Counted from the stretch's first letter, positions 20,277 through 53,754 are shown. The stretch: 64,000 nt of DNA from Candidatus Latescibacterota bacterium (GCA_965203175.1 OZ241867.1:4450733-4514732), one strand, 5' to 3'. Notes: generated by a model from the letters alone, not told the origin. Made by a program: numbers and translations.

Positions 20277-21710
20277 ATGGCTCAACTGAAATCGATCCGC
20301 CTGCGCTTTGACAAACCTTTGACCGGGCCGTACGACCGACTTTTGCGTCGTCCCGGCCCCGAGGTTGCCGCACTGACCGCGGGCGAGACAATGGCGATCA
20401 TTCGTGGCACGCGGCTGCTAAAGGCCATGCCCTTATGGGAGAGCGAGGCCGCGTGTTATTATGCCACAGGCAAGGCAGACACTGGGTGGTCGCCGGCAGA
20501 TTTTAGGGACGCAGAGCAAGCCGAGCGCTGGGCAGAGCATGGACTGGTGGATTCGCTGGCTGTGCCCGTAGGTTATTTCAAGCTACCCAATGCCGACTGG
20601 GTCGGTTCGCTGGCGGCCGAGCTGACGCCGTGGACGGCTCAAGCCATCGAAACATGGCGAGCGGGGATTGAGCGGGACATTTGGCTAACGGTATTGAGAG
20701 TGTATCGCTGTGCGCCCGTTCAACCGAAATTCTTGCGTCAAACAGGCCTGCAACTGTGCGTTAGGCCCTTTGAGGTCGAGCAATTGCAGCCAGTCGTTTT
20801 AGAAAGCGAACTCGAGCGGCGGATGGAACAGATACAAGAGGCCGTAGAACGGCATGCTCGCGGTGGCGGCATCCGTGTGGGCGCAAGCTACGACGTCCAG
20901 GCCTTCACCGCGGAGACCGGCTACAGTGCCGATCAGCTAAAGGGCTGGATTGACCAATTGCAGCGCAAGCAGCAGCTCATCCTATACGGCCCGCCCGGCA
21001 CCGGCAAGACGTACTTGGCCGAGCGCTTGGCGCGTTATCTGGTGGATGGCGGCGGTTTTAGCGAACTCGTGCAATTCCACGCCTCGTACGCGTATGAGGA
21101 TTTCGTCCAGGGGATCCGGCCACGGGTGGTAGAGGGCGCACTGCACTACGAATTAGCCGCCGGACATTTTCTGCGGTTTTGCGACAAGGCGCGCCAAGCC
21201 GGAGAAAAGCCCTGTGTGCTAATCATCGATGAAATAAACCGCGCAAACCTCGCGCGCGTTTTCGGCGAGCTAATGTACCTGCTGGAATACCACCACCGCC
21301 CGATCACCTTGGCGGGTGGTGGTCCCGAGTTTTCGATCCCCGCCAACGTCTATCTCATCGGCACGATGAACACGGCCGACCGGTCGATCGCCTTGGTTGA
21401 CCAAGCCATGCGACGGCGATTTAGCTTTATCCGTCTGCGGCCCAACTATCAGTTGTTGGCAACTTATCTCGGGAACAGGGGCTTGCCCTCGGATAAATTG
21501 GTTGCGCTACTAAAAGAAGTGAATCAATCCATTGGAGACGAGGACTGCGAGCTAGGCCTTTCTTTCTTTATGGTCGCCGATGTCGCAACGGCACTGGTGC
21601 ATATTTGGCAAGGAGAGGTCGAGCCATATCTGGAGGAAGTGTTTTTCGATCGCCCGGACCAGATGGCGCGCTTTCGCTGGTCCAAGGTCTCCGGGCGTTT
21701 GCAGGATTGA
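20277..21710 (+). CDS. mcrB: McrB-family AAA+ GTPase with an unrecognised ~215-aa N-terminal domain
   Basis: Walker A LYGPPGTGKT, Walker B LIIDEINRAN, McrB signature GTMNTADRS. Confidence 0.88.
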   Translation: MAQLKSIRLRFDKPLTGPYDRLLRRPGPEVAALTAGETMAIIRGTRLLKAMPLWESEAACYYATGKADTGWSPADFRDAEQAERWAEHGLVDSLAVPVGYFKLPNADWVGSLAAELTPWTAQAIETWRAGIERDIWLTVLRVYRCAPVQPKFLRQTGLQLCVRPFEVEQLQPVVLESELERRMEQIQEAVERHARGGGIRVGASYDVQAFTAETGYSADQLKGWIDQLQRKQQLILYGPPGTGKTYLAERLARYLVDGGGFSELVQFHASYAYEDFVQGIRPRVVEGALHYELAAGHFLRFCDKARQAGEKPCVLIIDEINRANLARVFGELMYLLEYHHRPITLAGGGPEFSIPANVYLIGTMNTADRSIALVDQAMRRRFSFIRLRPNYQLLATYLGNRGLPSDKLVALLKEVNQSIGDEDCELGLSFFMVADVATALVHIWQGEVEPYLEEVFFDRPDQMARFRWSKVSGRLQD

Positions 21711-21713
21711 CGC

Positions 21714-22874
21714 GTGCGACGCTACGAGCTGATCGAAGAGGAAGTGGCGGCGATACCGGCTGCCGAGCTTGCGGTCGAACAGGCCCTGCACCTGCACGCC
21801 CAATATCCAAAAGAGTTGGAGTTCGGTTTCCCCAGCCCGCTTAATGACCAGTGTTATCAGCTCAGGTCGCGGGGCTATGTCGGCGTGGTGCCTTTGGGCG
21901 CGAATGCCGCCCTGGAAATCACTCCCAAAATACGCTGCTCGCTGCTCATGCCCATGCTGGAGTATGCCTATCAGTTGCCCAAGATCAGCGCGCACAAGGC
22001 TCCGGCCACGATGGGGGATATCTACGAATTTTGGGCCGAGGTGCTCGCGCACAAGGTCTTACAACGGGTGCGGCGTGGGCTGTATTGGGATTACCAAACT
22101 CGCGAAGGTCTCAGTCGGTGGGTGCGAGGGCGCATGTACCCCGAGCGCAGCGGTCTAGGCGTCCATCCCTATTGTCGGTTTGCAGAGCACACGCCCGATA
22201 TTATCGACAACCGCATCTTGGCCAACGCGCTACATGGCCTGAGGCGCTTTGCCTTCCGCCGCGAGAGCGTTCGGCAGATGGTCGGTAGAGCTTGGAGGGC
22301 GCTGAGCGAGCTAAATTACCGCCACATTCGCCCCGTAGATTGCCTCGGCGTCGCGTATCACCGGCTAAACGAGGACTACCGACCCATGCATGCCTTGTGT
22401 TATTTCTTGCTCCAACAGCGAAGTCCGGCTTGGGGACTGGGAACCGAGGAAGGACCGGCATATCTGCTGCACATGCCGACTTTATTCGAGCGGTTTTGCA
22501 CAGCGTTTATCGACCACAAGCTCAACCACGAGGTCGAACTAAAAGCTCAGTACCACACGCGACTCAAGGGAACGGAGCGGTTTTCTTTTCGCTTGGACAT
22601 GGCTCTATTTTCGGCGGCAACCGGGCAGCCGCTGGCGGTGATAGATGCAAAGTACAAGGCCGATGGTCCCTCGGAAAACGATGTGCAGCAGGTGGTTGCC
22701 TATGCGGTTCAGTTAGGCACGCGTCGGGCCTTTTTGCTCTATCCTAGCAGCGATGTGGACGAGCAGTTCGAAGTCGGTCCAGTGGCCGTACAAGCGCTAG
22801 GGTACGATTTCGAAGCCGAAAATATAGAGAAAGCAGGCCAAGGCGTGATTCGTAAAATTGAAAATAGCATATAA
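21714..22874 (+). CDS. mcrC: McrC nuclease subunit (PD-(D/E)xK)
   Basis: Lies 3 nt after mcrB. IDAKYK motif near the C-terminus. GTG start. Confidence 0.85.
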   Translation: MRRYELIEEEVAAIPAAELAVEQALHLHAQYPKELEFGFPSPLNDQCYQLRSRGYVGVVPLGANAALEITPKIRCSLLMPMLEYAYQLPKISAHKAPATMGDIYEFWAEVLAHKVLQRVRRGLYWDYQTREGLSRWVRGRMYPERSGLGVHPYCRFAEHTPDIIDNRILANALHGLRRFAFRRESVRQMVGRAWRALSELNYRHIRPVDCLGVAYHRLNEDYRPMHALCYFLLQQRSPAWGLGTEEGPAYLLHMPTLFERFCTAFIDHKLNHEVELKAQYHTRLKGTERFSFRLDMALFSAATGQPLAVIDAKYKADGPSENDVQQVVAYAVQLGTRRAFLLYPSSDVDEQFEVGPVAVQALGYDFEAENIEKAGQGVIRKIENSI

Positions 22875-22908
22875 AAATTAATATGTAAATAAAATAAACA
22901 AAAAACTT

Positions 22909-38470: not shown

Positions 38471-38899
38471 TCAGAAGTTCAAGTCGGCCAAGAGCACGGT
38501 CCAGGGCAGGGAGGCGACTTTGCGGTACAGGTCGCCGTCGCTGGTCACGGCTTGGCAGCGGAGATGGGCACCTAAGGCGATGAAGCCGGCGGCGTACATG
38601 CTGATGGAATGCTCAAAGGCGATTTGCGTTGCTCTGCGGATAATTTCGGCGTTGTAGGGCACAATATCCAAGTGCATGTACGCCAAGCTGGCCAAGGCGT
38701 CGTCGATATGCGTGCGATCGAATTGTTGACTTTCCTTGAGGACGTGGGCTAACTCGTATATTGATTGGTCGAGCACGGTTAGCTCGACCCGTTCCGCTAG
38801 CTGCTCCTGGCGAAGTTCAAGGGCCTTGTGGGCATCCACGTCGTGCGCTGGAGAAAACCACCGCAGCATAACGGAGGTATCTAGCGCGTAGCGAATCAC
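38471..38899 (-). CDS. vapC: PIN-domain toxin VapC
   Basis: YALDTSV... acidic PIN residues. GTG start overlaps the antitoxin stop (GTGA). Confidence 0.8.
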   Translation of the reverse strand: MIRYALDTSVMLRWFSPAHDVDAHKALELRQEQLAERVELTVLDQSIYELAHVLKESQQFDRTHIDDALASLAYMHLDIVPYNAEIIRRATQIAFEHSISMYAAGFIALGAHLRCQAVTSDGDLYRKVASLPWTVLLADLNF

Positions 38900-39153
38900 T
38901 GCTCTTGCCGTTCCGCGCGCAGAAGCTGGAGCGGATCCCAAGGCAGGGCCTTTTTGCGCAGGCTGTCTTGGAGCGTCATTCCGTGTTCAATAGCCGCCTG
39001 CTTCCGCTGGTACTCGTATGTTGCGTCCCTTTGTTGGCAGTACGCCATAAAGGCCAACCGCAGGAGTTTGCTGCGGCTTACGCCCTCTTGCTGCGCAACT
39101 TGATCAATGCGTTCGAGCAAATCGTCCGGCAACATGATATTTACGCGCGCCAT
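38896..39153 (-). CDS. vapB: ribbon-helix-helix (CopG) antitoxin VapB
   Basis: MARVNIMLPDDLLERID. AGGAG RBS before ATG 39153. Confidence 0.8.
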   Translation of the reverse strand: MARVNIMLPDDLLERIDQVAQQEGVSRSKLLRLAFMAYCQQRDATYEYQRKQAAIEHGMTLQDSLRKKALPWDPLQLLRAERQEQ

Positions 39154-40234: not shown

Positions 40235-40396
40235 ATGCCAAGTAAACTGAGTATTTTCTTTGAGTTATGGGATTTTATGAAGGTGCGCAAAAAGTGGTGG
40301 TTGGGGCCGATATTTGCCACTTTGATCCTGTTAGGGCTGTTAATTGTCACAACCCAAGGATCAGCAGTAGCCCCGTTTATTTACGCCCTGTTTTAA
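40235..40396 (+). CDS. 53-aa DUF5989-like small membrane protein
   Basis: MPSKLSIFFELWDFMKVRKKWWLGPIFATLILLGLLIVTTQGSAVAPFIYALF. Below the track cutoff. Confidence 0.6.
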   Translation: MPSKLSIFFELWDFMKVRKKWWLGPIFATLILLGLLIVTTQGSAVAPFIYALF

Positions 40397-40422
40397 GTCT
40401 TATAACATATAATATGTAAAAT
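40395..40422 (+). other. dif-like 11-6-11 site (copy a)
   Basis: AAGTCTTATAA-CATATA-ATATGTAAAAT. Fills the whole spacer between the DUF5989 stop and the apt ATG. Confidence 0.45.
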
Positions 40423-40933
40423 GAATATAAAAGAACTCATCCGCGAAGTCCCCAATTTCCCGCAAGACGGCATTTTGTATAAAGACATCACGCCGCTGCT
40501 CAAGGACCCCGCTGGTTTATCCGCTGCGGTCCAAATTATGCTCAAACCCTTTGCGGACTCCGAAGTAGACGTCGTCGTCGGCATAGAAGCCCGCGGCTTT
40601 GTCTTTGCGACACCCATGGCCCTCGAGTTAGGATGCGGTTTTGTGCCGGTGCGCAAACCGGGTAAGCTACCGGCGGCCACGCTGCGCCGCGAATACGCAC
40701 TCGAATACGGCGAGACCTCTCTGGAAATCCATACCGATGCCATCGCGCCGGGGCAGAAGGTCTTGGTCGTGGATGACGTTTTGGCCACCGGTGGAACCTT
40801 GGTGGCGACGTGTCAAACGCTTGAAGAGTTGGGAGCGGTTGTCGTGGGCATCAGCGTTTTGGCCGAGTTGAGCTTTTTGTCGGGCCGCCGCCTCTTGCAC
40901 GGGTACAAATTGGCAAGTGCTATCGTCTATTAA
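40421..40933 (+). CDS. apt: adenine phosphoribosyltransferase
   Basis: VLVVDDVLATGGT PRPP motif, 170 aa. Confidence 0.93.
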   Translation: MNIKELIREVPNFPQDGILYKDITPLLKDPAGLSAAVQIMLKPFADSEVDVVVGIEARGFVFATPMALELGCGFVPVRKPGKLPAATLRREYALEYGETSLEIHTDAIAPGQKVLVVDDVLATGGTLVATCQTLEELGAVVVGISVLAELSFLSGRRLLHGYKLASAIVY

Positions 40934-40970
40934 AACCTGAACCTAAAACCAGGGGGAAGCAATACCTTTC

Positions 40971-41639
40971 ATGTCGAGTGAACGCCGTAGACTGAGCAAG
41001 AGCGAACTCCGCGAAGATGAGTTCGTCGAATGGATCATGGAGGCAGTCGAGTACGTCAAAGAGCGCGCTCGCCTCTTTGGCGGTGGAGCCGTCGCTGTGA
41101 TCGCGGTCATTATGGCCATCAATTATTTCATCGAGTCCAAAGAGGCCGATAGACTCAAAGCCGCCGCGCTACTCGGCGATGTGCTGATGGTCGAGCAGGG
41201 CGGCGAGCCAACCGAGGCGATCCGCTATGCCGAGGAACTGGTATCCTCTTATGCCGGGACCACAGCTGCAGCCCAAGGGATCGTACTTTTGGCTAATCTC
41301 CACTACTCACAGGGCCGCTATGGCGAGGCTCGAGGTTACTACCAGAGCTACTTGGACAACTATGAGCCTGTAGATGTGCTGGTCCACGCGGCCCAGAGCG
41401 GTCTCGGTGCCTGTCTCGAAGCTGAAGGGCAGCTCCTAGCCGCGGCCCAGCACTACGAAACCTATGCGGCCCAGCAGGCGGGGACCATCCGCGAGGCCAT
41501 GGCGCGGATGGAAGCCGCCCGCATATATGGGTTGGCCGGCGAGAGCGACAAGCAACAGGCCCTACTCAAACAAGTCAGTCGCACATTCGCCCAGTACCCG
41601 ATTGCCGCTCAAGCCCGCGCTGCACTAGCCATGTTCTAA
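40971..41639 (+). CDS. YfgM-like membrane-anchored TPR protein
   Basis: N-terminal charged region, single TM, TPR-like helices. Confidence 0.5.
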   Translation: MSSERRRLSKSELREDEFVEWIMEAVEYVKERARLFGGGAVAVIAVIMAINYFIESKEADRLKAAALLGDVLMVEQGGEPTEAIRYAEELVSSYAGTTAAAQGIVLLANLHYSQGRYGEARGYYQSYLDNYEPVDVLVHAAQSGLGACLEAEGQLLAAAQHYETYAAQQAGTIREAMARMEAARIYGLAGESDKQQALLKQVSRTFAQYPIAAQARAALAMF

Positions 41640-41647
41640 GGGGGCTA

Positions 41648-42573
41648 TTGATGGGCAGTACAGATCTCAAAGTTTTCGCTGGGCGAAGCAACCCCGCACT
41701 GGCAGCAGGCATTTACCAGTCGCTGGCCATTGAGCCAGGACACATCGAATTTATCGACTTTAGCAACGAAAATATAAAGGTAAAGATCTGCGAAAATGTA
41801 CGCGGCCACGATGTGTTCTTTATTCAAACCTCGTGTCCTCCCGTCAGCGACTACTTGATGGAGCTGCTCATAGCTCTCGACGCCCTAAAATACGCCTCGG
41901 CCGGCCGCATCACCGCCGTTCTGCCTTACTATCCGTATGCTCTGGCCGACAGCAAGGACGAACCAAGGATTTCCGTGGCGGGTCGTCTGGTGGCGGATCT
42001 AATCGCTGAAGCGGGGGCGGACCGCATTCTCACCATGACCTTACATAGCCCTCAGACTATGGGCTTTAGCCGGATCCCAGTTGATCAACTCAGCGGCGTC
42101 CCGGCGATATGTGCTTATTACGCTGACCTCGACCGAGACAACTTAGTCGCTGCCGCTCCGGACATCAGTCGCGCCAAGGTCACCGAAACCTATGCCCAGC
42201 GGTTGGGGTTGCCCCTTGTAGTCGTTGATCAGGGTGCCGGGGAAAACAGGGTCATTGGCGACGTAGCCGGCCGAGATGTCGTATCTTCGACGACGCGATC
42301 ATTACCGGCACTTCCATCCTCAGGGGGGCTGCTGCGGTTAAAGAGCGCGGAGGGCGCAAAATCTACGCTGGTTGCGTTCACGGCACCCTCACCAAGGAAA
42401 CGCTAGCGAGGTTGGATCAGTCCAGCCTGCAGGCGCTCGCCATTACCGATACGATTCCCTTGCCAGCGGACGCTAGCACTCCCATGATGCAGGTGTGCTC
42501 CGTGGCCCCTCTCTTTGCCCGTGCTATCCGCGCTATCCACGAAGAAACGTCTATTAGTGCGCTATTCAACTGA
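41648..42573 (+). pseudogene. prs: second prs copy disrupted by a 1-nt frameshift near 42281-42283
   Basis: Prs-like to ...VIGDVAGRDVV. The homologous continuation IFDDAIITGTS...AIHEETSISALFN is in another frame and ends at TGA 42571-42573. The DKRR segment is also missing. Confidence 0.75.
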
Positions 42574-42585
42574 GGCGAAGCCGTT

Positions 42586-43308
42586 TTGAAGATCGCAGTA
42601 CTAGCCGATATCCACGCCAATCTCGAAGCACTAGAGGCCGTGTTGATCGCCGCGACTAACGCTGGTGCCGAGCGCATCCTCTGCCTAGGGGACATTGTGG
42701 GATACGGGCCCGATCCCTTGGGCTGTATCTATCGGCTCAAGGAGGTAGAAGCGCAGATCGTACTGGGCAATCACGACCAAGCCGTGCTGGAGCCGGCGCG
42801 CATCCAGTCTTTTAACCTGTTGGCCCGTCCCTCATTGTACCAAGCACACGAGTTACTGGGAGAGGAAGAACGGGACTTTCTACAGCAGGGGGTCTTGCGA
42901 CGCGTGGAACGCGATGCGGCCCTGTCCCATGCCAATCCCCTCAAGCCCGAAGAGTGGGAACCCCTCCTCATGTACGATCGCGTCGCTTGGTGCATGAGCC
43001 ATCTCAAGTGGCCATTGGCTTTTGTCGGCCACACACACGAATCGCGCATCTACTGCAAGATGCGCGATAAGCCCGTGCCGCTGACTTCGGCTAGGGCCGC
43101 CATAGGAGAGCACCGGTATTTGGTTTCTGTCGGCAGTGTCGGCCAACCCCGCGACGGCGACTGGCGGTCGGCGTACACCCTGTGGGATACCGACGAACAA
43201 TGGGTTGAACTCCAACGAGTCGAATACCCGTTTAAGCTGACCCAGCAAAAGATCGAAAACCTCGGCTACCCCAACTATTTAGCTGAACGCCTCGCCAAAG
43301 GGGAGTAG
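42586..43308 (+). CDS. metallophosphoesterase
   Basis: ADIHAN, GDIVGYG, GNHD, GHTH motifs. TTG start. Confidence 0.85.
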   Translation: MKIAVLADIHANLEALEAVLIAATNAGAERILCLGDIVGYGPDPLGCIYRLKEVEAQIVLGNHDQAVLEPARIQSFNLLARPSLYQAHELLGEEERDFLQQGVLRRVERDAALSHANPLKPEEWEPLLMYDRVAWCMSHLKWPLAFVGHTHESRIYCKMRDKPVPLTSARAAIGEHRYLVSVGSVGQPRDGDWRSAYTLWDTDEQWVELQRVEYPFKLTQQKIENLGYPNYLAERLAKGE

Positions 43309-43323
43309 GTAGGGCGGGCACTC

Positions 43324-44229
43324 ATGCAGGGCCGCATTATCAGAGTCTCTGGGCTACAGTGCCTCGTCGAGGTCGAGCAAAGCCACTGGAAATGCGAGAT
43401 TCGGGGTCGTCTCAAGTCTGGGCGTCGCAAGACTAGTTCCCCGGTCGTTGCTGGCGATTGGGTCGATGTCGTACCTACGGCGGAACGGACTGGAGTCATC
43501 GAAACGGTACATCCCCGATCCTCTAAATTTTCGCGTGGGGCCAGTGGAGCACGTCCGTTTGAGCAAATTCTCTTTGTCAATATGGAGCAATTGGTCGTCG
43601 TTGTGGCCGCTTGCCAACCCAAGCCCCGTCGCGGCTTTATTGACAGAACGATTGTCATGGCGATAAAGGGGAATCTCCAGCCGGTGGTATGTATCAACAA
43701 GGTCGATTTAGCCTCCGAAGAAGCCGTGGACTCCCTAACTGCCCCTTATGAGGCCCTCGGTTATCCAATTTATCGCACCAGTGCCCTGCGAGGCGACGGC
43801 ATGGGAATGTTCAAAGAAGCCCTGATCAATCGCAGCACGGCCGTGGTCGGCCAATCTGGGGTCGGCAAATCGACCTTGCTCAACGGTATCGAACCAGGGT
43901 TGGGACTAAAGACAAAGGAAATAATGAAGCACCACGACCGGGGCCGGCACACGACCACGACCGTGCATTTATTCAAGTTGCGAGAGGGCGGCTATGTGGT
44001 CGATACTCCAGGAGTTAAAAAACTCCGCTTATGGGGGGTAAAACCTGCTGAGCTAGCGACGTATTATCCCGAGCTAGAACCTTTGCGTGGCCAATGCCAA
44101 TTCGGCGATTGCAGCCACTTGCACGAACCCGGCTGTGCGGTCCGCGCAGCCGTAGCGACCGGTCGCATAGCGTCGGCGCGCTACGAAGGATATCGGCGTA
44201 TTTTTGCGAGCTTGAGTGGGGATGAATGA
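43324..44229 (+). CDS. rsgA: ribosome small-subunit GTPase RsgA
   Basis: VGQSGVGKSTLLN. Zinc knuckle CQFGDCSHLHEPGC. Confidence 0.93.
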   Translation: MQGRIIRVSGLQCLVEVEQSHWKCEIRGRLKSGRRKTSSPVVAGDWVDVVPTAERTGVIETVHPRSSKFSRGASGARPFEQILFVNMEQLVVVVAACQPKPRRGFIDRTIVMAIKGNLQPVVCINKVDLASEEAVDSLTAPYEALGYPIYRTSALRGDGMGMFKEALINRSTAVVGQSGVGKSTLLNGIEPGLGLKTKEIMKHHDRGRHTTTTVHLFKLREGGYVVDTPGVKKLRLWGVKPAELATYYPELEPLRGQCQFGDCSHLHEPGCAVRAAVATGRIASARYEGYRRIFASLSGDE

Positions 44230-45163
44230 ACTGACTATTAAGGATCTGCTAGCTACCTACGGGCAGCAACTACGGCTGAAGCTCATCGCCGGTTCCGAAG
44301 GGGTACAGCGGACCATCAACAACAGCGACATCCACCGTCCTGGCCTAGCCCTGACGGGCTTCGTCGAGCTGTTTACCTTGGATCAAGTACAGCTCTTGGG
44401 CAATACCGAAGCGGAGTATCTGCGCAGCTTACCCCCAGACCGACGGCGGCAGGCCCTCAAAATCATATACCAATTCGATATTCCATGCGTGGTCTTGACC
44501 GGTAGGGGACGGGTGTACTCTGAGTTGCGGGAGCTAGCCGATGAGTGCGCGGTCCCACTGCTGAAGTCTGGATTCAACACGGCCGAGTTTACCCATCTCA
44601 TCCGCTTTTACCTCGACGAGGTGTTCTCGCCCCAAGTGTCCATGCATGGTACGTTGGTCGATGTCTCTGGAGTAGGGTTACTTTTTCGCGGCCGCAGTGG
44701 TATTGGCAAAAGCGAAGTCGCCTTGGATTTGGTCGAGCGCGGGCATCGGTTGGTGGCCGACGATGTGGTCATCATTAACCGCAAGCCCCAAGGCATTTTG
44801 GTGGGGTGTAGCTCGGAGATGCTCCAAGATCACATCGAAATTCGCGGCATCGGCATCCTAGACGTAAAAAAGATGTTTGGCGCGTGGAGGACTCGGCGGC
44901 AGAAGCGGGTGGAGGTATTGGTCAACCTCGTCGATTGGGACGAAAAATATGCCTACGAACGCCTTGGCCTCGAAGATAATAAAGTGGTAATCCTCGGTGT
45001 CGAGGTGCCCGAGGTCTTCATACCGCTATTTCCCGGTAAAAATATCACGGTACTCGCCGAGGCTATAGCGATAGATTATCTCTTGCGCTTGGACGGGGAT
45101 TACGCGGCACGGACATTTAGCCAGCGGCTCCAGGAGCGAATTAAGATGGGCAAAAAACCATGA
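44222..45163 (+). CDS. hprK: HPr kinase/phosphorylase
   Basis: GRSGIGKSE P-loop, IEIRGIGILD. ATG 44222 overlaps the rsgA stop. Confidence 0.92.
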   Translation: MNELTIKDLLATYGQQLRLKLIAGSEGVQRTINNSDIHRPGLALTGFVELFTLDQVQLLGNTEAEYLRSLPPDRRRQALKIIYQFDIPCVVLTGRGRVYSELRELADECAVPLLKSGFNTAEFTHLIRFYLDEVFSPQVSMHGTLVDVSGVGLLFRGRSGIGKSEVALDLVERGHRLVADDVVIINRKPQGILVGCSSEMLQDHIEIRGIGILDVKKMFGAWRTRRQKRVEVLVNLVDWDEKYAYERLGLEDNKVVILGVEVPEVFIPLFPGKNITVLAEAIAIDYLLRLDGDYAARTFSQRLQERIKMGKKP

Positions 45164-45960
45164 TGACGCTTGGCGTAGCAGGCCATGCCCTCGAGGTAGC
45201 CGTGCATCAGGATGCTTTGCAAAGCTGCGGCGATATTCAGTTCGTGCACCAATCTGATTGCGCTGCGGTCTTGGAAGAAAAAATAGACGGCCTGGTGATA
45301 TTGCACGTGGAAGACAAATCGCATTGGATAGGAGCGGCCGTGGCAGCCGGTCTTCACGTCATGGCCTCCCATCCCGTCCAGGAGCCGTTTGCAAACAGCC
45401 ATCCCAATGTGTGCGTGCTTTCACTGGGGAGGCATACGCACTTTTGCACAGCTTTGACCGCTCAGCAAGGGGTAGCGCATTACTCTCTAGAGCTTTCTTT
45501 TGCTTCGGCTCTATTCGATCCCATCAACCGCGATATGATCTACAACCAGGCGGCCTTGGACATATGCGACCTGTTGCTGAGCACTTGGGGACGGGTAGAT
45601 ATGCTGTACAGCAGGATGCGCAACTTTTTTCACCCTGGGCGCATGGAGGACGTGTCGATTGCGCTACTGAGGATGCGCAACGGAGTCGAAGGCTCGGTTT
45701 CATTCATGGACTTTCCGGCTGTGGCTCCGGCTTTGCGAGTCCGCTTGTATGCACAGGACGAAATGGTCGATACGTCTTGGCCTTGGGTGTGGGAAGCGGA
45801 CGATCTGGCGGCGTATTATCGCAATTTTGTCGCCTGTATCCAAGGACGAGCCCAACCGCTGTTGGATTTGGCACAGGTCGCTGAAAGCTATCGTCTCTTG
45901 GAATGGATGCGCATGTCGGCGAGGCAAGATATGGTTTTAAATCGCAAGCAAGTAAAATAA
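45160..45960 (+). CDS. divergent Gfo/Idh/MocA-like protein (no intact GxGxxG)
   Basis: Weak Rossmann-like N-terminus. Overlaps the hprK stop by 4 nt. Confidence 0.4.
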   Translation: MMTLGVAGHALEVAVHQDALQSCGDIQFVHQSDCAAVLEEKIDGLVILHVEDKSHWIGAAVAAGLHVMASHPVQEPFANSHPNVCVLSLGRHTHFCTALTAQQGVAHYSLELSFASALFDPINRDMIYNQAALDICDLLLSTWGRVDMLYSRMRNFFHPGRMEDVSIALLRMRNGVEGSVSFMDFPAVAPALRVRLYAQDEMVDTSWPWVWEADDLAAYYRNFVACIQGRAQPLLDLAQVAESYRLLEWMRMSARQDMVLNRKQVK

Positions 45961-45993
45961 AAAGTCTTATAAAATATTTTATGTAAACAAAAA
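45960..45993 (+). repeat. left copy of the perfect 34-bp inverted repeat; dif-like core 45962-45989
   Basis: AAAAGTCTTATAAAATATTTTATGTAAACAAAAA is the exact reverse complement of 49494-49527. Confidence 0.95.
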
Positions 45994-46000
45994 ATCTATA

Positions 46001-46525
46001 ATGAATACACCATCCTCACCACCTACATACTTCGCTCTTGGGTTGGCAAGCTTCTTGTTAGCAATTGTGTTATTGTTCAACATGCTCAGTCCTATGGCTG
46101 TGCCAGTTACCAGAGAGCAGTTCGATCAGATAAAAGAGGCCGATCTCATCGAGTCTCTGATTGTGCAACCCCGAGGATTTACTTGGCAACTCAAAAGGGC
46201 CGTGAGAGTCCAGGGGACCAACGGCGAGACACTAGCCAAGCGGGTCGCGCTAGTAGAGCCAGACCCAGCCGTAGGCGAAGATTGGCAACAAAAGGGAGGA
46301 GCGGTGCGCCACGAGCAAGATAACTCGTGGTGGGGTGGGGCAGTCTTCATCGCCTTGTTACTCGGCGTGGGGGGATGGCATATCTGGTCCCAAATACGGT
46401 TAGATCTCAAAGGGGGAGGGGGGCCGCGCCGCCGCTTGCGCGACCTGGAAACCGCGCTTAAACAAGGCAAAATTACCCAAGCCGAATTCCGGCAGCAGGC
46501 CGAGCGGCTCTGGGCCGAATTGTGA
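46001..46525 (+). CDS. two-TM membrane protein with a C-terminal SHOCT-like helix
   Basis: N-terminal TM, second TM, tail LRDLETALKQGKITQAEFRQQAERLWAEL. Confidence 0.65.
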   Translation: MNTPSSPPTYFALGLASFLLAIVLLFNMLSPMAVPVTREQFDQIKEADLIESLIVQPRGFTWQLKRAVRVQGTNGETLAKRVALVEPDPAVGEDWQQKGGAVRHEQDNSWWGGAVFIALLLGVGGWHIWSQIRLDLKGGGGPRRRLRDLETALKQGKITQAEFRQQAERLWAEL

Positions 46526-46531
46526 GGAGCT

Positions 46532-48322
46532 ATGGCGAGTACCATTCGCGTTCTCGACGAAAGTCTCATTGGAAAAATCGCCGCCGGTGAGGTAGTGGAG
46601 CGACCAGCTTCGGTCGTGAAGGAATTGGTCGAAAACTCGATCGATTCGGGTGCCGCTAAAATCCGCGTGGAAATCAAGGCCGGTGGCAAGCAGTCAATTG
46701 TCGTGACCGACGATGGTTCGGGCATGAACAGAGAGGATATCGCTTTGTGCGTGCGCCGGCACGCCACGAGTAAGATGGCCTCGGTAGCCGATCTGTTCTG
46801 CATTCAGACGCTGGGGTTTCGCGGCGAAGCCCTAGCTAGCATTGGTGCGGTAGCCCACTTGGCGATAGAATCACGTGCGAGGGAAGACGAAGCCGGAACG
46901 CGCTTGGTCGTGGAAGGGGGAATAGAGCGGGAGATGCACAGCATTGGCCGAGCGCGCGGCACAGCCATTGTAGTAAACAACCTGTTCTTTAATACGCCCG
47001 CGCGGCGCAAGTTTCTCCGGTCCGTCGATACGGAAGCTCGCCACGTGGCGCAGACCATAATTCATCTAGCCGCTGGCTACCCGGCCCTTGGCTTTGAACT
47101 AGAGCACCAAGATCGCCAAGTATTGAACTACGCCCCGGCGTCTCGTCGGGAGCGCGCGGCCGAGTTGCTGGGTGTTCCAGTCGCCAAACTGTTGGATCTC
47201 GCTCACGAGGAGGAGGGTCTCAAAATCGAAGGAGTCTTAGCCGGTCCCGAGCACTGCGGCCGGAGCAAGGGCAAGCAGTATCTCATCGTACAGGGGCGCC
47301 CCATCTCTTCGCGACTGATGGCCAGTGCTATACAGCGGTGTTTTGAGGGGCTGCTGCCCGAAGGGCGTCATCCAGTATTCATGCTCTGGATCGATATGGA
47401 TCCTAAGAAAATCGACGTCAACGTCCATCCGACGAAGCGGGAGATTCGCTTGGCCAACGAAGGGCAGGTCATCGCGGCTATTGAGAACAGCGTCCGGCAG
47501 AGCTTGCGCCTGCCCGATGTACAATCCTTTGTCTATGCTGCGGCTCCAATGCTGCGGCCGGACAGCACTCCTCGCTTCAGCGGGGACAGCAGTACTGCAG
47601 GTGGCGAGCCAATACCGGTGCGCGTGGGAGAACCAGCGTCACCGGTATTGCAAAGGATGCCTGCGTCCGGCGAGCCTGGGGTAGCGGCAACCCGTGATGC
47701 CGACGATCAGCTCGCCCTGACCTTCGTCGCTCCAGCCGTCAAACTCGCCGTCGCCGAAAACGCCGCGATGTGGCAGGTCCACAACCAGTATATCCTCGTC
47801 GAAGTAGCCGATGGCCTACTCTTCGTCGACCAGCAAGCTGCACACGAACGCATCAACTACGATCGGGCCATGGAGCAAATAGACGGCGTAGCCGGAGAAA
47901 GCCAGCAGTTGCTCTTTCCCATACAGCTAGAAATGGGCGCGGCGGATTTCGAGACCCTCAACCAAGTGCGGGACGATATTGCCAAGCTGGGATTTGTCGT
48001 GCGAGATTTTGGCGCGCGGACGGTGTTGGTGGAAGCTGTGCCGGCCGAATTGGATCGCTTTGGCGATGGCGATGTTTTTTATCAGCTATTGAACGACGTG
48101 CGCGATGCCCAGAATTCGGGCCGACCTTGGCGCGAAGCGCTCGTCTTAGCTTACGCGCGCAAAGCTAGTATCAAGAAAGGCCAGAAACTGAACTCCGAGG
48201 AAATGATACACTTAATCAACGAATTGCTAAAGGCCGACTCGCCGCACATAAGCCCAACGGACAAGCCGATTATGGCGAGGATGAAATTAAGCGATATGGA
48301 GCGTTTATTGCGGAGATTCTAG
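46532..48322 (+). CDS. mutL: DNA mismatch repair protein MutL
   Basis: GHKL ATPase motifs VVERPASVVKELVENSIDSGA, DDGSGM, GFRGEAL. 596 aa. Confidence 0.95.
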   Translation: MASTIRVLDESLIGKIAAGEVVERPASVVKELVENSIDSGAAKIRVEIKAGGKQSIVVTDDGSGMNREDIALCVRRHATSKMASVADLFCIQTLGFRGEALASIGAVAHLAIESRAREDEAGTRLVVEGGIEREMHSIGRARGTAIVVNNLFFNTPARRKFLRSVDTEARHVAQTIIHLAAGYPALGFELEHQDRQVLNYAPASRRERAAELLGVPVAKLLDLAHEEEGLKIEGVLAGPEHCGRSKGKQYLIVQGRPISSRLMASAIQRCFEGLLPEGRHPVFMLWIDMDPKKIDVNVHPTKREIRLANEGQVIAAIENSVRQSLRLPDVQSFVYAAAPMLRPDSTPRFSGDSSTAGGEPIPVRVGEPASPVLQRMPASGEPGVAATRDADDQLALTFVAPAVKLAVAENAAMWQVHNQYILVEVADGLLFVDQQAAHERINYDRAMEQIDGVAGESQQLLFPIQLEMGAADFETLNQVRDDIAKLGFVVRDFGARTVLVEAVPAELDRFGDGDVFYQLLNDVRDAQNSGRPWREALVLAYARKASIKKGQKLNSEEMIHLINELLKADSPHISPTDKPIMARMKLSDMERLLRRF

Positions 48323-48475
48323 TTTTCTATTTAATCTGGCCATGATACTAACGATAACAGGCATTATCAATAGTATAAAAACTAGGCGAATCCCTTGTGA
48401 AACGCGGCGGCAAAATTCCGCGATGTTCGCTATATTTGGGACATTAGACACCAATTAAGCCCCAGCGAGCATTTT

Positions 48476-49450
48476 ATGAGTCAGACACTCAATCCGGTCG
48501 TCCGCAGGCTAACGCCAACACCAGCGTTGGTAGCGGACGATCCTTTGGAACAATTTCTCAGTGGCCAACTCAGCGAGCGCACTCGGCGCGCTTATTACGC
48601 CGACCTCCAGCATTTCTTTTTTTCTATCGGCATGGAACTAAATGAAGTATCGCTCACCGTCTTGCAGTCAATCACCTTTGAGCACGTGGTCGCCTTTAGA
48701 AATCAGCTCGCCAGCGAAGGTTATAAGCGCAGCAGCATCAACAGAAAATTGTCCAGCCTGAAGTCGTTGTTCAAGATGCTGGTCGCCTTAGGTCACATCG
48801 AGAAGAATCCCGCTGACTCTACGTTGGTGCGCGGTTATAAAGTGGACGAAACCCTAGCTGGCAAGGCGCTTTCCAATCAGGTGCTGAACAAGATCCAGCA
48901 AGCCATTGCCGAGGAAAAAGACGATTTGGTTCGCACGCGCGATGCAGCCATGTTTCATTTGCTTACATTCGGCGGCCTGCGCCGCTCTGAAGTGGCTGGC
49001 ATCGCTTGGGAGGATATATCCTTGGAGGGCGTCTTTTATATCCTGCATCTCCCCGAGACTAAATCGGGCGTGGCGCAGGATATAAAACTGCAAAACGTCG
49101 TCCTGCATCATCTCGAATTATACAAAGAACAATTACAGGCGGCGGGCTTGCCGACGACTGGCAAGGTCTTCATCAGCCTGTCGCGCAACCAATCTCGCGG
49201 TCAGCCGCTGACTGACCAATCGGTAAATCACGTCGTTAAGAAGTACGCTATGCGCGCTGGCCTCCCCCAGAACGTCACCGCGCATATGTTCCGCCACACG
49301 TGCTGTACTCTGGCGATTGAAGGCGGAGCTAAGCCCCAGCAAGTGCAAGCCCATTTGCGCCACAAGGATCTAAAGACGACGATGCGTTACTACGAGAATC
49401 GCGAAAAGCTGCTCGATAATGCGTCTGATTACATTAATATTGGTAGTTGA
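48476..49450 (+). CDS. XerC/XerD-family tyrosine recombinase
   Basis: Catalytic pattern GLRRSE ... HMFRHT ... LRHKD ... MRYY. 324 aa. Looks AT-richer than its neighbours. Confidence 0.9.
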   Translation: MSQTLNPVVRRLTPTPALVADDPLEQFLSGQLSERTRRAYYADLQHFFFSIGMELNEVSLTVLQSITFEHVVAFRNQLASEGYKRSSINRKLSSLKSLFKMLVALGHIEKNPADSTLVRGYKVDETLAGKALSNQVLNKIQQAIAEEKDDLVRTRDAAMFHLLTFGGLRRSEVAGIAWEDISLEGVFYILHLPETKSGVAQDIKLQNVVLHHLELYKEQLQAAGLPTTGKVFISLSRNQSRGQPLTDQSVNHVVKKYAMRAGLPQNVTAHMFRHTCCTLAIEGGAKPQQVQAHLRHKDLKTTMRYYENREKLLDNASDYINIGS

Positions 49451-49493
49451 TGTTTTTTGTTTTGTAGGCGGATTTTTTTCTTCGGCTTCTTTC

Positions 49494-49527
49494 TTTTTGT
49501 TTACATAAAATATTTTATAAGACTTTT
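49494..49527 (-). repeat. right copy of the 34-bp inverted repeat; dif-like core 49498-49525
   Basis: TTTTTGTTTACATAAAATATTTTATAAGACTTTT. Lies 48 bp after the recombinase stop and 20 bp from the leuS stop. Confidence 0.95.
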
Positions 49528-49544
49528 AAGGTTTGTATTGATTT

Positions 49545-52430
49545 CTATACCACAATATTGACAATTTTATTCGGTACCCATATAAACCGCTTTATCGCCG
49601 CTTCATCGGCTACGTATTTCTGAATGCTCTCCATGTCGAGCACCAAGGACTTTATCTCTTCCTCTCCAGTGCGAACCGGTACTTCGACTTGTCCGCGCAT
49701 TTTGCCGTTGACCTGAATAGGCACTACGATCATGTCCTCGGCGGCCTTGGCAGCATCCCAGTCAGGCCAGTTCTGACGACTGAGGTCTCCTCTCCCAAAG
49801 CCCGCCATTTCCCATAGCTCCTCGGCAATATGCGGAGCAAAGGGCGCGAGCAGGTTCAAGAAAGGCTTGGCAACAGCCTGCGGTACTTCGCCTAAGGACA
49901 CCAACAGGTTATTTAACTCGATCAAGGCGGCAATAGCCGTATTAAACCGCAGCCCCTCTATATCCTCAGTTACCTTTTGAATGGTTTGGTGCAGCTTTCT
50001 TTCTAGCTCCGGTGCCAACGCAGCGCTCTCCCCTATTCTCACACGTCGATCTGAATCGACAAAGTTGCGCCACACGCGCTGTAAGAAGCGCTGCATCCCG
50101 CGAATGCCTTCCATGCTCCACGGCGCACTCGCTTCGAGCGGCCCCATGTACATTTCGTACAACCGCAAGGTATCCACGCCAAACTCCTCGCCGACTTCTT
50201 CGGGCGGTAGCCCGTTTTTGTAGCGTTTACCCATCTTGCCAGAAGAACGGTGCAGCGTCTTCCCTGTCTCCTTCTCAACAGGCTCCCCGTCGCGGAACTC
50301 AACCTCGCGGATGTCGATATACACGCCGCGGTCGTCCTGAAAGGCATCTGCGGTCATCATGCCTTGGTTAAACAGCTTCTTAAACGGCTCGGGGGTAGAT
50401 ACGTGGCCTAAGTCATAGAGGGCCTTGTGCCAAAACCGAGCGTAGAGCAAGTGCAACACAGCGTGTTCAGCGCCGCCGATGTAGAGATCGACGGGCATGA
50501 AGTAGCCCTCCTTAGCCAAGTCGCAGAAGGCTTCTTCGTTGTGCGGATCAATAAAACGGAGATAGTACCAGCAAGAACCGGCCCATTGGGGCATGACGTT
50601 GAGTTCGCGCTGGCAGGCTATTCCGTCAATTTCCACCGTCGTCCACTCCGCTCCGGCCCGGTGCAGCGGCGGCGAAACGGGTTGAGTGGGATCGTCGGAG
50701 GTCTCCGGCCTAAAATCTTCTAGGTCCGGCAGCGCCACTGGAGGCCCAACCGCAACAGAATATCCATCAGGATGCGTAGCCAGTGGAAAGGGTTCGCCCC
50801 AATAGCGCTGTCGAGCAAAAGTCCAGTCGCGCAGTTTGTAGTTTACTGCAGCTTGGCCTCGCCCCTCGGCGACTAGTGCGGCGACGATCTGGGATTTGGC
50901 CACGGCCGTCGCCAATCCGTTAATGGCGTATGGATTATCGCCGCCCAGTACTGGAGGCGAGTTGATGGCGGTTCCCTCCCCGGTATACCACCCTTCGACC
51001 TTTCCTTCCCCTCCAGTAACTACCTTCACAATGTCCAAGTTATAGGCGGTGGCAAAGGCGAAATCGCGCTCGTCGTGAGCCGGCACCGCCATAATGGCCC
51101 CCGCGCCGTAATCCATGCTGACGTAGTCGGCGACGAAAATGGGGATTTTTTGTCCATTGACTGGATTGCGGGCGTAGATGCCGGAGAAAATGCCCGTTTT
51201 TTCTTTGGTCTCATCCGCAGTGGAGACAGCAACCTGCGCTATGTACTGGGCTATAGCTTCCCGGATGGATCCCCCTCCTCCCTTCCACTGATCCGGCGTC
51301 CCGTCGGGCCAAGCACTGGGAACCAAATAGGCTTCCTCGGCCGGGTCCACCAGCGGATGCTGAGGGGCAAGGGCCATAAAGGTCGCTCCAAAGAGCGTAT
51401 CGGGGCGGGTTGTGAACACGAGCAACTGCCCGGCGACCGCGTCGCTTTGCGGGTCGAGGACATCAAAGCACACTTCAGCTCCTTCGCTGCGACCAATCCA
51501 GTTGCGCTGCATCCGTTTGATCGGTTCTGGCCAATCGAGCCGGAAGGACGCGCCGTTGCGGTCCTCCAGTTCAAAGTCCAAGTCCTCTAAGAGCCGCTCG
51601 GCGTAGGCTGTTATACGCATCGTCCATTGTCGCAACGGTTTGCGGTATACGGGAAAATCTCCCCGCTCGCTGCGGCCTTCGTTGGTTACCTCCTCGTTGG
51701 CCAACACAGTGCCCAAGCCGGGACACCAGTTGACGACGGCCTCTTGCTGGTACGCCAGCCGGTAGTTGTTCAGCACGGTTTGACGCTCGGCCGCAGTTAG
51801 TGCGGACCAGGCTTTATCAGTGCCAAGAACTTGACGGCCTGCTGCCGACAAAGCCCTGCCCGCCGCAAATTGGGCCTCTAAGTCGGCGATGGGCTTAGCC
51901 CGTCCCTTTATTTGGCGTCCATTGCCGTCTTCCCAGATCTCGTCTTCGTCGAAATAACTATCGAATAGCTGGGTGAAAATCCACTGAGTCCAGCGGTAGT
52001 ACGACGCCCGCGACGTGACCACTTCGCGGGCCCAATCAAACGAGAGTCCAAGAAACTGCAATTGGCTGCGCATCGCATCGATATTCTGCTCTGTTACAGC
52101 CGCTGGATGGATGTTGTGTTCGATCGCGTATTGCTCGGCCGGCAAGCCAAAACTGTCGAACCCCATCGGATGCAGGACGTTAAATCCCTGCATCCTTTTG
52201 TAGCGACTGTAGATGTCGCTGGCGATATACCCCTTGGGATGGCCGATGTGCAGCCCTGCTCCGCTTGGATAGGGAAACATATCAAGGATGTAGCACTTTG
52301 GTTTGTTGTGGTCGAAACCGCGGTCTCCCGGCCCCAGTGTTTGATAGGTCTTTTCTTGCTCCCAATGGGACCGCCATTTGGTTTCGATGGCTTGAAAATT
52401 GTATTGGCCTTTTTTTGTTTTGATTGACAT
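49545..52430 (-). CDS. leuS: leucyl-tRNA synthetase
   Basis: HIGH (GLHIGH) and KMSKS-like (GKMGKR) motifs, 961 aa. Confidence 0.96.
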   Translation of the reverse strand: MSIKTKKGQYNFQAIETKWRSHWEQEKTYQTLGPGDRGFDHNKPKCYILDMFPYPSGAGLHIGHPKGYIASDIYSRYKRMQGFNVLHPMGFDSFGLPAEQYAIEHNIHPAAVTEQNIDAMRSQLQFLGLSFDWAREVVTSRASYYRWTQWIFTQLFDSYFDEDEIWEDGNGRQIKGRAKPIADLEAQFAAGRALSAAGRQVLGTDKAWSALTAAERQTVLNNYRLAYQQEAVVNWCPGLGTVLANEEVTNEGRSERGDFPVYRKPLRQWTMRITAYAERLLEDLDFELEDRNGASFRLDWPEPIKRMQRNWIGRSEGAEVCFDVLDPQSDAVAGQLLVFTTRPDTLFGATFMALAPQHPLVDPAEEAYLVPSAWPDGTPDQWKGGGGSIREAIAQYIAQVAVSTADETKEKTGIFSGIYARNPVNGQKIPIFVADYVSMDYGAGAIMAVPAHDERDFAFATAYNLDIVKVVTGGEGKVEGWYTGEGTAINSPPVLGGDNPYAINGLATAVAKSQIVAALVAEGRGQAAVNYKLRDWTFARQRYWGEPFPLATHPDGYSVAVGPPVALPDLEDFRPETSDDPTQPVSPPLHRAGAEWTTVEIDGIACQRELNVMPQWAGSCWYYLRFIDPHNEEAFCDLAKEGYFMPVDLYIGGAEHAVLHLLYARFWHKALYDLGHVSTPEPFKKLFNQGMMTADAFQDDRGVYIDIREVEFRDGEPVEKETGKTLHRSSGKMGKRYKNGLPPEEVGEEFGVDTLRLYEMYMGPLEASAPWSMEGIRGMQRFLQRVWRNFVDSDRRVRIGESAALAPELERKLHQTIQKVTEDIEGLRFNTAIAALIELNNLLVSLGEVPQAVAKPFLNLLAPFAPHIAEELWEMAGFGRGDLSRQNWPDWDAAKAAEDMIVVPIQVNGKMRGQVEVPVRTGEEEIKSLVLDMESIQKYVADEAAIKRFIWVPNKIVNIVV

Positions 52431-52449
52431 AATTATCCTTATAAGACAT
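52422..52449 (-). other. dif-like 11-6-11 site (copy c)
   Basis: On the minus strand: ATGTCTTATAA-GGATAA-TTATGTCAATC. Spans the whole asnS-leuS spacer plus leuS codons 1-3. Confidence 0.4.
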
Positions 52450-53754
52450 TTATGGATAGAGGCGTTGCATCATGCGCGGAAATGGAATGCTCTCGCGCAC
52501 GTGCTTGACGCCACACAACCAAGCGACCACCCGCTCGATTCCCATGCCAAAGCCAGCGTGTTCAACCGAGCCGTAGCGCCGCAAGTCGAGATACCAGCTA
52601 AAGGCTTCCTCGGGCAACTGGTGCGTGGCAATTTTGTGCTGCAAGACGACAAGATCGTCTTCGCGTTGCCCGCCCCCAATGATTTCCCCATACCCTTCGG
52701 GTGCCAACAGGTCCATACACAGGGCCAAGCGGCGATCTTGGGCATCTTCCTTCATGTAGAATGCTTTGACTGCACTGGGATAGCGATGGACAAAAACCGG
52801 CACCTCGAACTCAGAGGCAAGGAGGGTTTCGTCGTCCCCACCCAGATCACTCCCCCATTTGATGTCGCTACCGAGGGCTGTCAAGCGCTCGACGGCTTCA
52901 TCATAGGTCAGGCGCGGAAAGGGCCGGCTGACCTGTTCCAGCTTGGTAGTATCTCGTTCGAGCAGCTTTAGCTCTTCGCGGCGGCGGGCGAGCACGCGGT
53001 CAAGCACGTACAAGACCATGTCCTCGGCCAAAGCCATGGCACCCTCCAAATCGCAATACGCCATCTCCGGCTCGATCATCCAGAACTCGGTCAAGTGCCG
53101 GCGGGTTTTGGACTTTTCAGCACGGAACGTCGGGCCAAAACAATAGACCTTGCCTAAGGCCATGGCGGCCGCTTCCATATAGAGCTGACCGCTCTGAGTC
53201 AAATAAGCCGTGTCGTCGAAATACGCGGTCTCAAATAGGGTCGAGGTCCCCTCACAGGCTGCGGGCGTAAAAATCGGTGCATCCACGAGGACAAAGTCGC
53301 GCTCTTCCATGAAGTCGCGGCAGGCCTTGCCGATTTCGCTGCGGATCTTGAGAATGGCCCCAGGCCGCATGGAACGCAGCCATAAATGGCGGTGGTCGAG
53401 GAGAAAGGACACCCCGTGTTCCTTAGGTGTGATGGGATATGGTTCGGCCTCCTGCACGACTTCGAGATCGCTGACCCCCACCTCATAGCCAATAGGTGCG
53501 CGCTCTTCCCGCCGTACTTGGCCGTGGACTACGAGCGAAGATTCTTGCGGCAAGTGATCGCACCGCTCGAATAGCTCTGACTCGACATCCCCTTTAAAAA
53601 CAACGCATTGTACCACGCCGCTACCATCGCGCAGTTGCATAAAATGCAGCTTGCCGCTCGAGCGCTTGTTGTACAACCAACCGCGCAGCACCACTTCTCG
53701 GCCTTCATAGCGGCCGATATCAGCCACCTGAATCGACTCCATTTCCTTATCCAT
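52450..53754 (-). CDS. asnS: asparaginyl-tRNA synthetase
   Basis: [21 protein letters not shown] and class II motif 3 GFGMGIER. Confidence 0.93.

Follow-up and report, generated by a model that had tools for sequence, protein, structure and literature searches.

Introduction

By the textbook rule, a bacterial chromosome carries one dif site, and inversions centred on the replication terminus have long been noted in bacterial genomes. In streptococci and lactococci (xerS-difSL) and in Helicobacter and Campylobacter (xerH-difH), the recombinase gene is linked to the terminus site (PMC2731167, PMC1914069). On Acinetobacter plasmids, inverted pairs of Xer-type sites (pdif) bound gene blocks that are rearranged between relatives (PMC5790767, PMC13141974), and Xer-like enzymes can themselves drive inversions, as exemplified by Xer1-vpma of Mycoplasma (PMC2268961). 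The only natural chromosome with two opposed dif sites found in our literature search is that of Lactobacillus delbrueckii ssp. bulgaricus, where both belong to an inverted repeat of 47.5 kb at the terminus, an arrangement termed unprecedented (PMC5345009) because recombination between opposed sites inverts DNA and does not resolve dimers. Here, we describe a 64-kb stretch of the chromosome of a Candidatus Latescibacterota bacterium (OZ241867.1:4450733-4514732; hereafter the window, meaning the whole stretch analysed), which holds five copies of a 28-bp element. These copies are probably dif-type Xer recombination sites, multiplied in mirror orientation round the replication terminus, with recombination between two of them, L and R, inverting the DNA in between. 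No account of dif in Latescibacteria was found in the literature.

Arrangement of the 28-bp sites around the replication terminus

Within the window, the pattern AWGTCTTATAA-N6-WTATGT has four matches, at 40395(+), 45962(+), 49503(-) and 52427(-), and none in 100 shuffles. They belong to the copies a, L, R and c (Table 1), all of which we confirm where the original prediction had placed them. The relaxed pattern ATAA-N6-WTATGTAA extends the family by a fifth copy, bringing the total to five. L and R share an identical stretch of 34 bp (45960-45993). The octamer TATGTAAA occurs four times in the window, each time inside a site, and copy c has TATGTCAA instead.

The cumulative GC skew reaches its maximum at 48.5-49.5 kb, with a top-strand skew of +0.066 to the left of 49.5 kb and of -0.070 to the right. 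On the left side, the top-strand skew is equal for genes on the + strand (+0.067) and on the - strand (+0.068), which indicates that it is linked to replication and not to transcription, and thus that the forks converge at R. In all window copies, the conserved right arm (TATGTAAA, XerD-arm-like) is directed at the skew switch at ~49.5 kb. The resulting orientation pattern, + + + / - -, places two opposed groups of polar sites on the flanks of the terminus; as every right arm points toward it, copies on opposite replichores are inverted repeats. The nested inverted pairs proposed originally for four copies are therefore correct as an arrangement, which continues outward, but their centre lies at ~49.5 kb, where the skew switches and genes converge, and not at 47 kb.

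Copies a, L and c form gene-gene junctions, a claim of the original prediction that the stop and start coordinates bear out. Copy a overlaps both the DUF5989 stop codon (40394-40396) and the apt ATG (40421), copy L begins 1 nt past the stop (45960) of a gene for a 266-aa protein, and copy c extends from directly after the asnS stop (52450-52452) through leuS codon 3, with the leuS ATG (52430) lying within its right arm (TTATGT). All three precede a start codon by 0-17 nt, on the strand of the gene served. The statement that leuS lacks a Shine-Dalgarno sequence proved wrong: a Shine-Dalgarno-like AAGGA, formed by the left-arm/central junction of c, stands 5 nt before the ATG. The neighbours of the fifth copy are convergent, with mcrC on the + strand and DctM on the - strand.

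Similarity of the sites to dif and their distribution

Structurally, the site follows an 11-6-11 layout, consisting of two 11-bp arms and a 6-bp centre, with palindromic inner arm ends (ATAA...TTAT). Compared to the XerD arm of E. coli dif (TTATGTTAAAT; PMC2731167), the right arm TTATGTAAACA of L and R agrees at 8 of 11 positions, and that of copy a at 9 of 11, the latter as predicted. Sequence entropy was calculated over 24 xer-proximal copies and 23 copies proximal to the gene for the 174-aa protein. The arms show 0.20-0.25 bits and the AT-only centre 0.70-0.84 bits, with 14 distinct centres, and the right arm TATGTAA is invariant among the 24 xer-proximal copies. This combination of conserved arms and a variable centre is as seen where a protein binds the arms and the spacer is free to vary.

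When 185,579 species genomes were scanned for AWGTCTTATAANNNNNNWTATGTMAA, 111 stretches were obtained. In other phyla (Smithella/Syntrophaceae, Balneolaceae, Rhodobacteraceae, Synergistaceae, Ignavibacteria and others), each genome has the strict 28-mer pattern once, the central region is kept within a family (Smithella, Balneolaceae, Rhodobacteraceae), and the GC skew turns from positive to negative across the site in 13 of 17 such single-copy loci. A single 28-mer per genome, usually at the skew switch, identifies the element as the dif of those phyla.

In Smithella/Syntrophaceae (L004, L008-L010, L020, L021, L034, L043, L079, L081, L097 and others), the single-copy 28-mer ATGTCTTATAA-GATATG-TTATGTAAAC is near-invariant, usually lies at the GC-skew switch and can be used to annotate dif in the family. 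Other centres are equally family-specific, namely TATATA or TTTATA in Balneolaceae and TCAGTA in Rhodobacteraceae.

Across 17 large chromosomes or contigs of Latescibacterota (4-7 Mb), all strict matches fall into one cluster, confined to one or two adjacent 8-kb blocks (<=16 kb) at the terminus. The genome-wide count suggested in the original prediction thus gave no dozens of dispersed copies, and the confinement to one terminus cluster rules out a dispersed promoter or leader. A generic dispersed repeat or REP-like element was rejected on the same clustering.

Copy number is where the sites fail as dif: a dif is expected once, and the window holds five copies, with 3-4 strict or near-strict copies per cluster in relatives. 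The sister clades L136 and L138 (P0081, P0061) carry a single site within +/-10 kb, downstream of xer at its convergence with leuS. This site is E. coli dif-like (GCAGCGTATAA-TGTATA-ATATGTTACTT), and no asnS-leuS copy is present there. Since the lone site of the sister clades matches the position of R, R is likely the ancestral chromosome-dimer-resolution site to which the other copies were added. The Xer/dif-type nature of the sites, as originally suspected, is borne out by their architecture, the XerD-like arm, the terminus position and the single-copy occurrence in other phyla.

The remaining copies also hold their places among relatives. Copy a is found at the same junction in 7 relatives and also in L003 (Xer 68% identical), and copy c at the asnS-leuS junction in 25 relatives with a left-arm entropy of 0.06 bits; L142, L143 and L144 all carry the fifth copy where mcrC ends. 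In the clade of the window, the left arm reads (A/T)GTCTTATAA in the L/R and c classes and is looser at a and at the fifth copy. The left arm in L003 is GCCGYATAA in 3/3 copies (after DUF5989, mutL and asnS), with the co-varied left arm AAGCCGTATAA at the DUF5989-apt junction. L125 has TTGACNTATAA or AGGTCATATAA, and the species P0010 has the arms TTGACNTATAA ... TATGTCAATA. This co-variation of left arms by clade across positions suggests that all copies respond to one factor. Identical centres in the inverted pair, as in the window, recur in six genomes from different subclades, which suggests occasional homogenisation.

Inversions with endpoints at the sites

The proteins and sites of the window were mapped onto relatives, three more genomes were added, and 26 genomes were scored. 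They adopt one of two arrangements, state A or state B (Table 1). In all 26, the L-R segment lies between the 266-aa gene and leuS, and its orientation alone changes. Only the four junction types predicted from an L x R inversion were observed (12, 11, 11 and 10 instances). Fitch parsimony on a neighbour-joining tree (xer + leuS, 23 genomes) requires at least six changes of state, and A/B genome pairs are 94-97% identical in nucleotides. L140 and L141, for example, share ~96.5% identity mutually and with the window, and differ by a reversed block of 3536 bp whose ends are the sites. An assembly artefact was rejected as the source of the two states, as both occur in independent long-read chromosomes and a 28-34-bp repeat cannot mislead such assemblies.

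Junction alignments reveal which parts move. The outer flank and the left arm of 11-12 bp are fixed, remaining with the 266-aa gene or with leuS, while the centre, the right arm and the inner flank move with the segment. The 174-aa gene always moves together with mutL and xer, and it is invariably the 3' end of xer that is turned toward the convergence point. Whichever the state, the operon lies downstream of a co-directional operon and keeps the same proximal half-site. The inverted pair of other clades contains no gene but xer, which is co-directional with mutL in L115 and opposite to it in L003.

A larger inversion involves the fifth copy. The relative OZ244897 (L143) is collinear with the window through the last base of the fifth site (window 22893), and past it becomes the reverse complement of the right end of the window (L143 10040-13161 = window 64000-60877). 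The inversion spans ~44 kb across the terminus, occurs in this one relative, and has the fifth site as its left breakpoint. In OZ244897, the right arm of the site supplies the ATG of miaA, as the right arm of c does for leuS. This junction predicts a sixth copy, in (-) orientation, upstream of miaA, ~2.9 kb past the right end of the window. The synteny comparison called for in the original prediction thus places inversion endpoints among relatives at L/R and at the fifth copy.

Several observations weigh against the explanation by dif-type recombination sites or limit it. Flips have occurred between sites with unlike 6-bp centres (ATAATT vs AAATTA; JAJEIO, JAPPEG, OZ220721), an event that the canonical two-step exchange of tyrosine recombinases should not permit, so that a one-strand exchange or a non-Xer route is needed. 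One orientation was found in 10/10 contigs in each of two well-sampled species; switching is therefore evolutionary and not demonstrably population-level. Metagenomes scanned for the 3' end of the 266-aa gene, which is conserved, gave one contig (L139), in state B and from a different strain. Among the relatives compared, no rearrangement was seen at a or c, and the conservation of these two copies may come partly from their overlap with the start regions of apt and leuS. Terminus restriction, in turn, was tested with the strict pattern only, which diverged copies such as the fifth escape.

The linked recombinase and a proposed mechanism

The Xer-like tyrosine recombinase, of 324 aa, is encoded by the only integrase-family gene among the window proteins scanned; the window contains no FtsK gene. 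Its best NCBIfam matches are XerC (131 bits) and XerD (121 bits), far under the family cut-offs (131 vs 335 bits, equivalog). The catalytic residues R, K, HxxR, H and Y all align to XerD (1A0P). An exact look-up of the window protein returned no record; the family shows 60-92% identity across the phylum, in many metagenomic genomes labelled Candidatus Latescibacterota. The xer stop lies 47 nt from R in the window, and the gap between xer and its site is ~45-60 nt in every clade.

We postulate that this adjacent enzyme binds all copies, including a and c, and would catalyse exchange between (+) and (-) copies. Recombination of a left-replichore copy with a right-replichore copy would invert the DNA between them. 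L x R would flip 3.5 kb comprising the 174-aa gene, mutL and xer, and the fifth copy, with its predicted partner upstream of miaA, would have flipped ~44 kb in one lineage. In XerC-only pathways, a single pair of strands is exchanged, followed by resolution of the junction through replication or another resolvase. The exchange proposed here may likewise take place at the left-arm/central boundary, with one strand-exchange pair and subsequent resolution by replication or another resolvase; since the crossover falls in the left arm even where the centres differ, one-strand-pair exchange is the simplest enzymatic route. R would be the working dif. Because the inversions are terminus-centred, they leave every gene co-directional with replication and bring the xer-proximal half-site back to the convergence, which would explain the persistence of both mirror-image states.

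A more far-reaching and rather doubtful proposal is that the mirror array is a maintained system, in which a single Xer-like recombinase acting on nested polar sites re-centres or flips the terminus in a programmed flip-flop and can carry mutL, xer and up to tens of kb from one replichore to the other. If so, bound sites might double as barriers to the translocase or to forks, crossover regions would not need to be identical for strand exchange, and the phylum would possess a Xer-based terminus-organising system.

Alternative explanations

It is possible, though in our view unlikely, that the sites are dif duplicates, with the recombinase resolving dimers at one of them only and the inversions arising from RecA-dependent or microhomology recombination or from template switching at the terminus. 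Short inverted repeats with 11-34 identical bp offer homology substrates; often, however, the identical stretch is only ~12-17 bp, which is below efficient RecA substrates. A crossover that always lies in the identical left arm, with differing centres staying with the inner DNA, is what a homology-driven process would be expected to give, and the lack of within-species polymorphism in the assemblies of two species points to rare events. Yet the at least 6-7 independent events fell at exactly these repeats and at no others, the fifth-site inversion employs a family member with a different left arm, and a dedicated recombinase gene lies inside or adjoins every such pair in several clades. A polar protein-DNA barrier array, that is, a fork trap or FtsK stop confining fork fusion or the translocase, with the inversions as a by-product, appears very improbable. 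The right arms of the five window copies and of the relocated fifth copy in OZ244897 do point toward the skew switch, but this polarity is automatic from gene co-orientation and terminus-centred inversions and does not count as evidence in its own right; four orientations being free, the pattern has a chance value of only ~0.06. Two copies serve no gene, and the gene of a binding protein adjoins the innermost pair, in the way that rtp adjoins the innermost terminus sites of B. subtilis. One site suffices in the sister clades, however, and we know of no evidence for a Xer protein that blocks replisomes. The translocase FtsK, for its part, is known to stop at XerCD-dif (PMC2800217).

We give almost no credence to the view that the element chiefly serves apt, the 174-aa gene and leuS as a signal at the level of RNA or expression (an AU-rich leader, a leaderless-mRNA promoter or an operator) and resembles dif by coincidence, the competing explanation in the original prediction. 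The positions of a, L and c, 0-17 nt before start codons, would suit such a role, as would the AAGG(A) and ATG that c gives leuS and the ATG that the OZ244897 copy gives miaA. Against this stand 0 strict copies beyond the terminus cluster in ~95 Mb of Latescibacterota chromosomes and an unconserved spacing of a and apt (4 nt in the window, ~92 nt in L003). Copy R, for which the lack of a gene to serve had already been recognised, lies between convergent genes, as does the fifth copy, and the same 28-mer is a single-copy terminus site in other phyla. Scans for promoters, terminators and Rfam families gave nothing at the sites, matches to sigma-70 promoters and intrinsic terminators being at chance level in the window. 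The weightiest point is that the sites are rearrangement breakpoints. The explanation also fails by the test that accompanied it, dispersed copies in dozens being absent among the strict matches. Hardly more credible are scars or boundaries of Xer-mobilised cassettes (IMEX- or pdif-like), integrated or excisable as circles and carrying leuS (R-c) or the block from apt to the 266-aa gene (a-L). The leuS locus shows three states that Xer-mediated integration or excision would be expected to leave before and after: leuS between direct repeats, as in the window; leuS missing, with a single site left after asnS, as in L003; and asnS and leuS overlapping with no site between, as in L136 and L138. 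Nevertheless, no block was met in a second genomic context, the cargo would be essential housekeeping genes, and the centres of R and c differ; in a search for leuS of the L003 genome, the L003 contig was not among the 120 LeuS homologue matches listed. The idea of module boundaries raised in the original prediction accordingly stands insofar as the sites are exact inversion breakpoints, but not as a mobile cassette, the segment being found in one context only with a housekeeping cargo (mutL and the recombinase).

Two further candidates for an RNA-level signal were rejected. No known RNA family was found. A Bacteroidota-type -7 box (TAnnTTTG), assessed by eye, agrees with some centres at 7/8 positions, and the upstream TTTG is absent.

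Features and neighbourhood of the locus

The surrounding genes are housekeeping genes, namely prs, apt, rsgA, hprK, mutL, leuS, asnS and pnp. The SHOCT label given earlier to the 174-aa gene is without Pfam support, the only match being a sub-threshold one to GvpG.

Table 1. Sites, genes and arrangements of the locus, in window coordinates.
Feature	Position	Strand	Description
Fifth copy	22864-22891	+	ATAGCATATAA-AAATTA-ATATGTAAATA; left arm overlaps the mcrC stop codon
Copy a	40395-40422	+	AAGTCTTATAA-CATATA-ATATGTAAAAT; occupies the whole DUF5989-apt spacer
Copy L	45962-45989	+	AAGTCTTATAA-AATATT-TTATGTAAACA; left boundary of the invertible segment
174-aa membrane-anchored protein gene	46001-46525	+	First gene of the invertible segment; no family above threshold
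mutL, DNA mismatch repair endonuclease	46532-48322	+	TIGR00585, 480 bits; inside the invertible segment
Xer-like tyrosine recombinase gene	48476-49450	+	Last gene of the invertible segment; Pfam Phage_integrase + SAM_1
Replication terminus	48500-49600	.	Cumulative GC-skew maximum; gene orientation turns + to -
Copy R	49498-49525	-	Same 28-mer as L; inside the convergent xer-leuS spacer at the GC-skew switch
leuS	49545-52430	-	Flanked by R and c, direct repeats of each other
Copy c	52422-52449	-	ATGTCTTATAA-GGATAA-TTATGTCAATC; occupies the asnS-leuS spacer
State A (window type), 15 genomes			266-aa gene > site(+) 174-aa gene > mutL > xer > site(-) < leuS
State B, 11 genomes			266-aa gene > site(+) < xer < mutL < 174-aa gene site(-) < leuS

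The spacer between mutL and xer (window 48322-48476; L001 9855-10001) contains a conserved block, ATAACAGGCATTATCRRTAGTATAAAAAC, common to the window and L001. The block is probably xer's own promoter or operator, carried within the invertible segment.

The fifth copy adjoins an McrBC restriction module (20277-22874), comprising an mcrB-like AAA_5 gene (20277-21710) and mcrC (21714-22874), whose stop codon is contained in the site's left arm. The site remains joined to mcrC though the downstream neighbour varies, being DctM in the window, L142 and L144, and miaA in L143. The second prs-like gene (41648-42573) seems truncated or frameshifted, with an open reading frame of 252 aa and a TTG start, followed by a gap of ~180 nt. 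Its counterpart in relatives encodes 307-312 aa (L001 3205-4128; L140 19818-20741), and the window copy may be a pseudogene or reflect a sequencing error. A PIN-domain toxin gene (38471-38941, - strand) lies just upstream of prs, ~1.5 kb from copy a, and is paired with an RHH antitoxin gene in L001 (L001 1-677).

Mobile elements adjoin the xer-dif module in several relatives. An IS256-type transposase gene lies between mutL and xer (L137 8723-9961, L138 9385-9981), a Tn3-family transposase and a resolvase lie just past the xer-distal site of L115 (7378-11167), and an IS3-type element is placed within the prs/TPR block of L003 (18044-19233). Compared to L136, L135 (10001-12301) carries a tandem duplication of ~1.3 kb, in which the final 240 nt of leuS are repeated together with xer and its dif site. 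The duplication stems from a long-read contig of 5x coverage, is absent in L136 (identical Xer) and has its junction away from the dif site, and may reflect either true structural variation or an error of assembly.

Some metagenome-assembled genomes labelled Gemmatimonadetes or Gemmatimonadota, L036/L072 (VXML01000034.1), L064/L082 (JAPPEG010000316.1) and L085 (VXZF01000438.1), hold the locus with the same sites, at 84-95% protein identity to the window. Their labels are probably wrong, and the genomes belong to the Latescibacterota clade.

Comparison with known systems

A clade of an uncultured phylum keeps at least five mirror-oriented copies of a dif-type site, round which at least 6-7 flips of the recombinase gene and mutL, and one of a 44-kb block, have taken place. 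For the terminus-centred inversions known from bacterial genomes, the locus offers a concrete molecular mechanism, and its five sites and one recombinase gene provide a substrate set for Xer exchange across differing centres. Pipelines for dif prediction that assume a single site will mis-call these genomes.

With E. coli XerCD/dif, the locus shares a 28-bp AT-rich site with 11-bp arms and a 6-bp centre, a conserved XerD-type arm, the position at the skew switch and the catalytic residues of the recombinase. It differs in its at least five mirror-oriented copies on two replichores, where E. coli has one, in its hypervariable centres, and in a recombinase that falls under the XerC/XerD cut-offs and is encoded beside the site. 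In these last respects it resembles xerS-difSL and xerH-difH, which likewise form a linked module of a site and a recombinase distinct from XerC and XerD. Those modules contain one site, whereas here a second, inverted copy encloses xer, alone or with mutL and neighbours, so that the module itself inverts.

Tus-Ter and RTP-Ter likewise comprise polar sites in two opposed groups, the innermost of which adjoin the gene for the putative binding protein. Unlike those, the present sites are of the recombination type, and no Tus or RTP homologue is present among the proteins scanned. Hin/hix of Salmonella and Xer1-vpma share with this locus short inverted sites that flank a segment holding or adjoining the recombinase gene. 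They serve high-frequency phase variation of surface genes away from the terminus, in contrast to the present locus, where no expression switch is evident. Of the features that define an inverton, inverted repeats and a nearby recombinase are present, and a promoter or coding switch is not, with no promoter-like site at the boundaries.

In L. delbrueckii ssp. bulgaricus, dif is doubled incidentally, as part of a huge inverted repeat, in a single subspecies, whereas here sites of 28-34 bp alone are repeated clade-wide and flips are seen among relatives. The locus is, as a whole, a natural chromosomal counterpart to plasmid pdif: the inverted pair L(+)/R(-) bounds three genes, as pdif pairs bound their modules. 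In contrast to pdif, which lie on plasmids, bound accessory genes (resistance or toxin-antitoxin) and occur in many contexts, the pair described here lies at the terminus of chromosomes of 4-7 Mb, encloses mutL and xer, and keeps a fixed place in which only inversion occurs.

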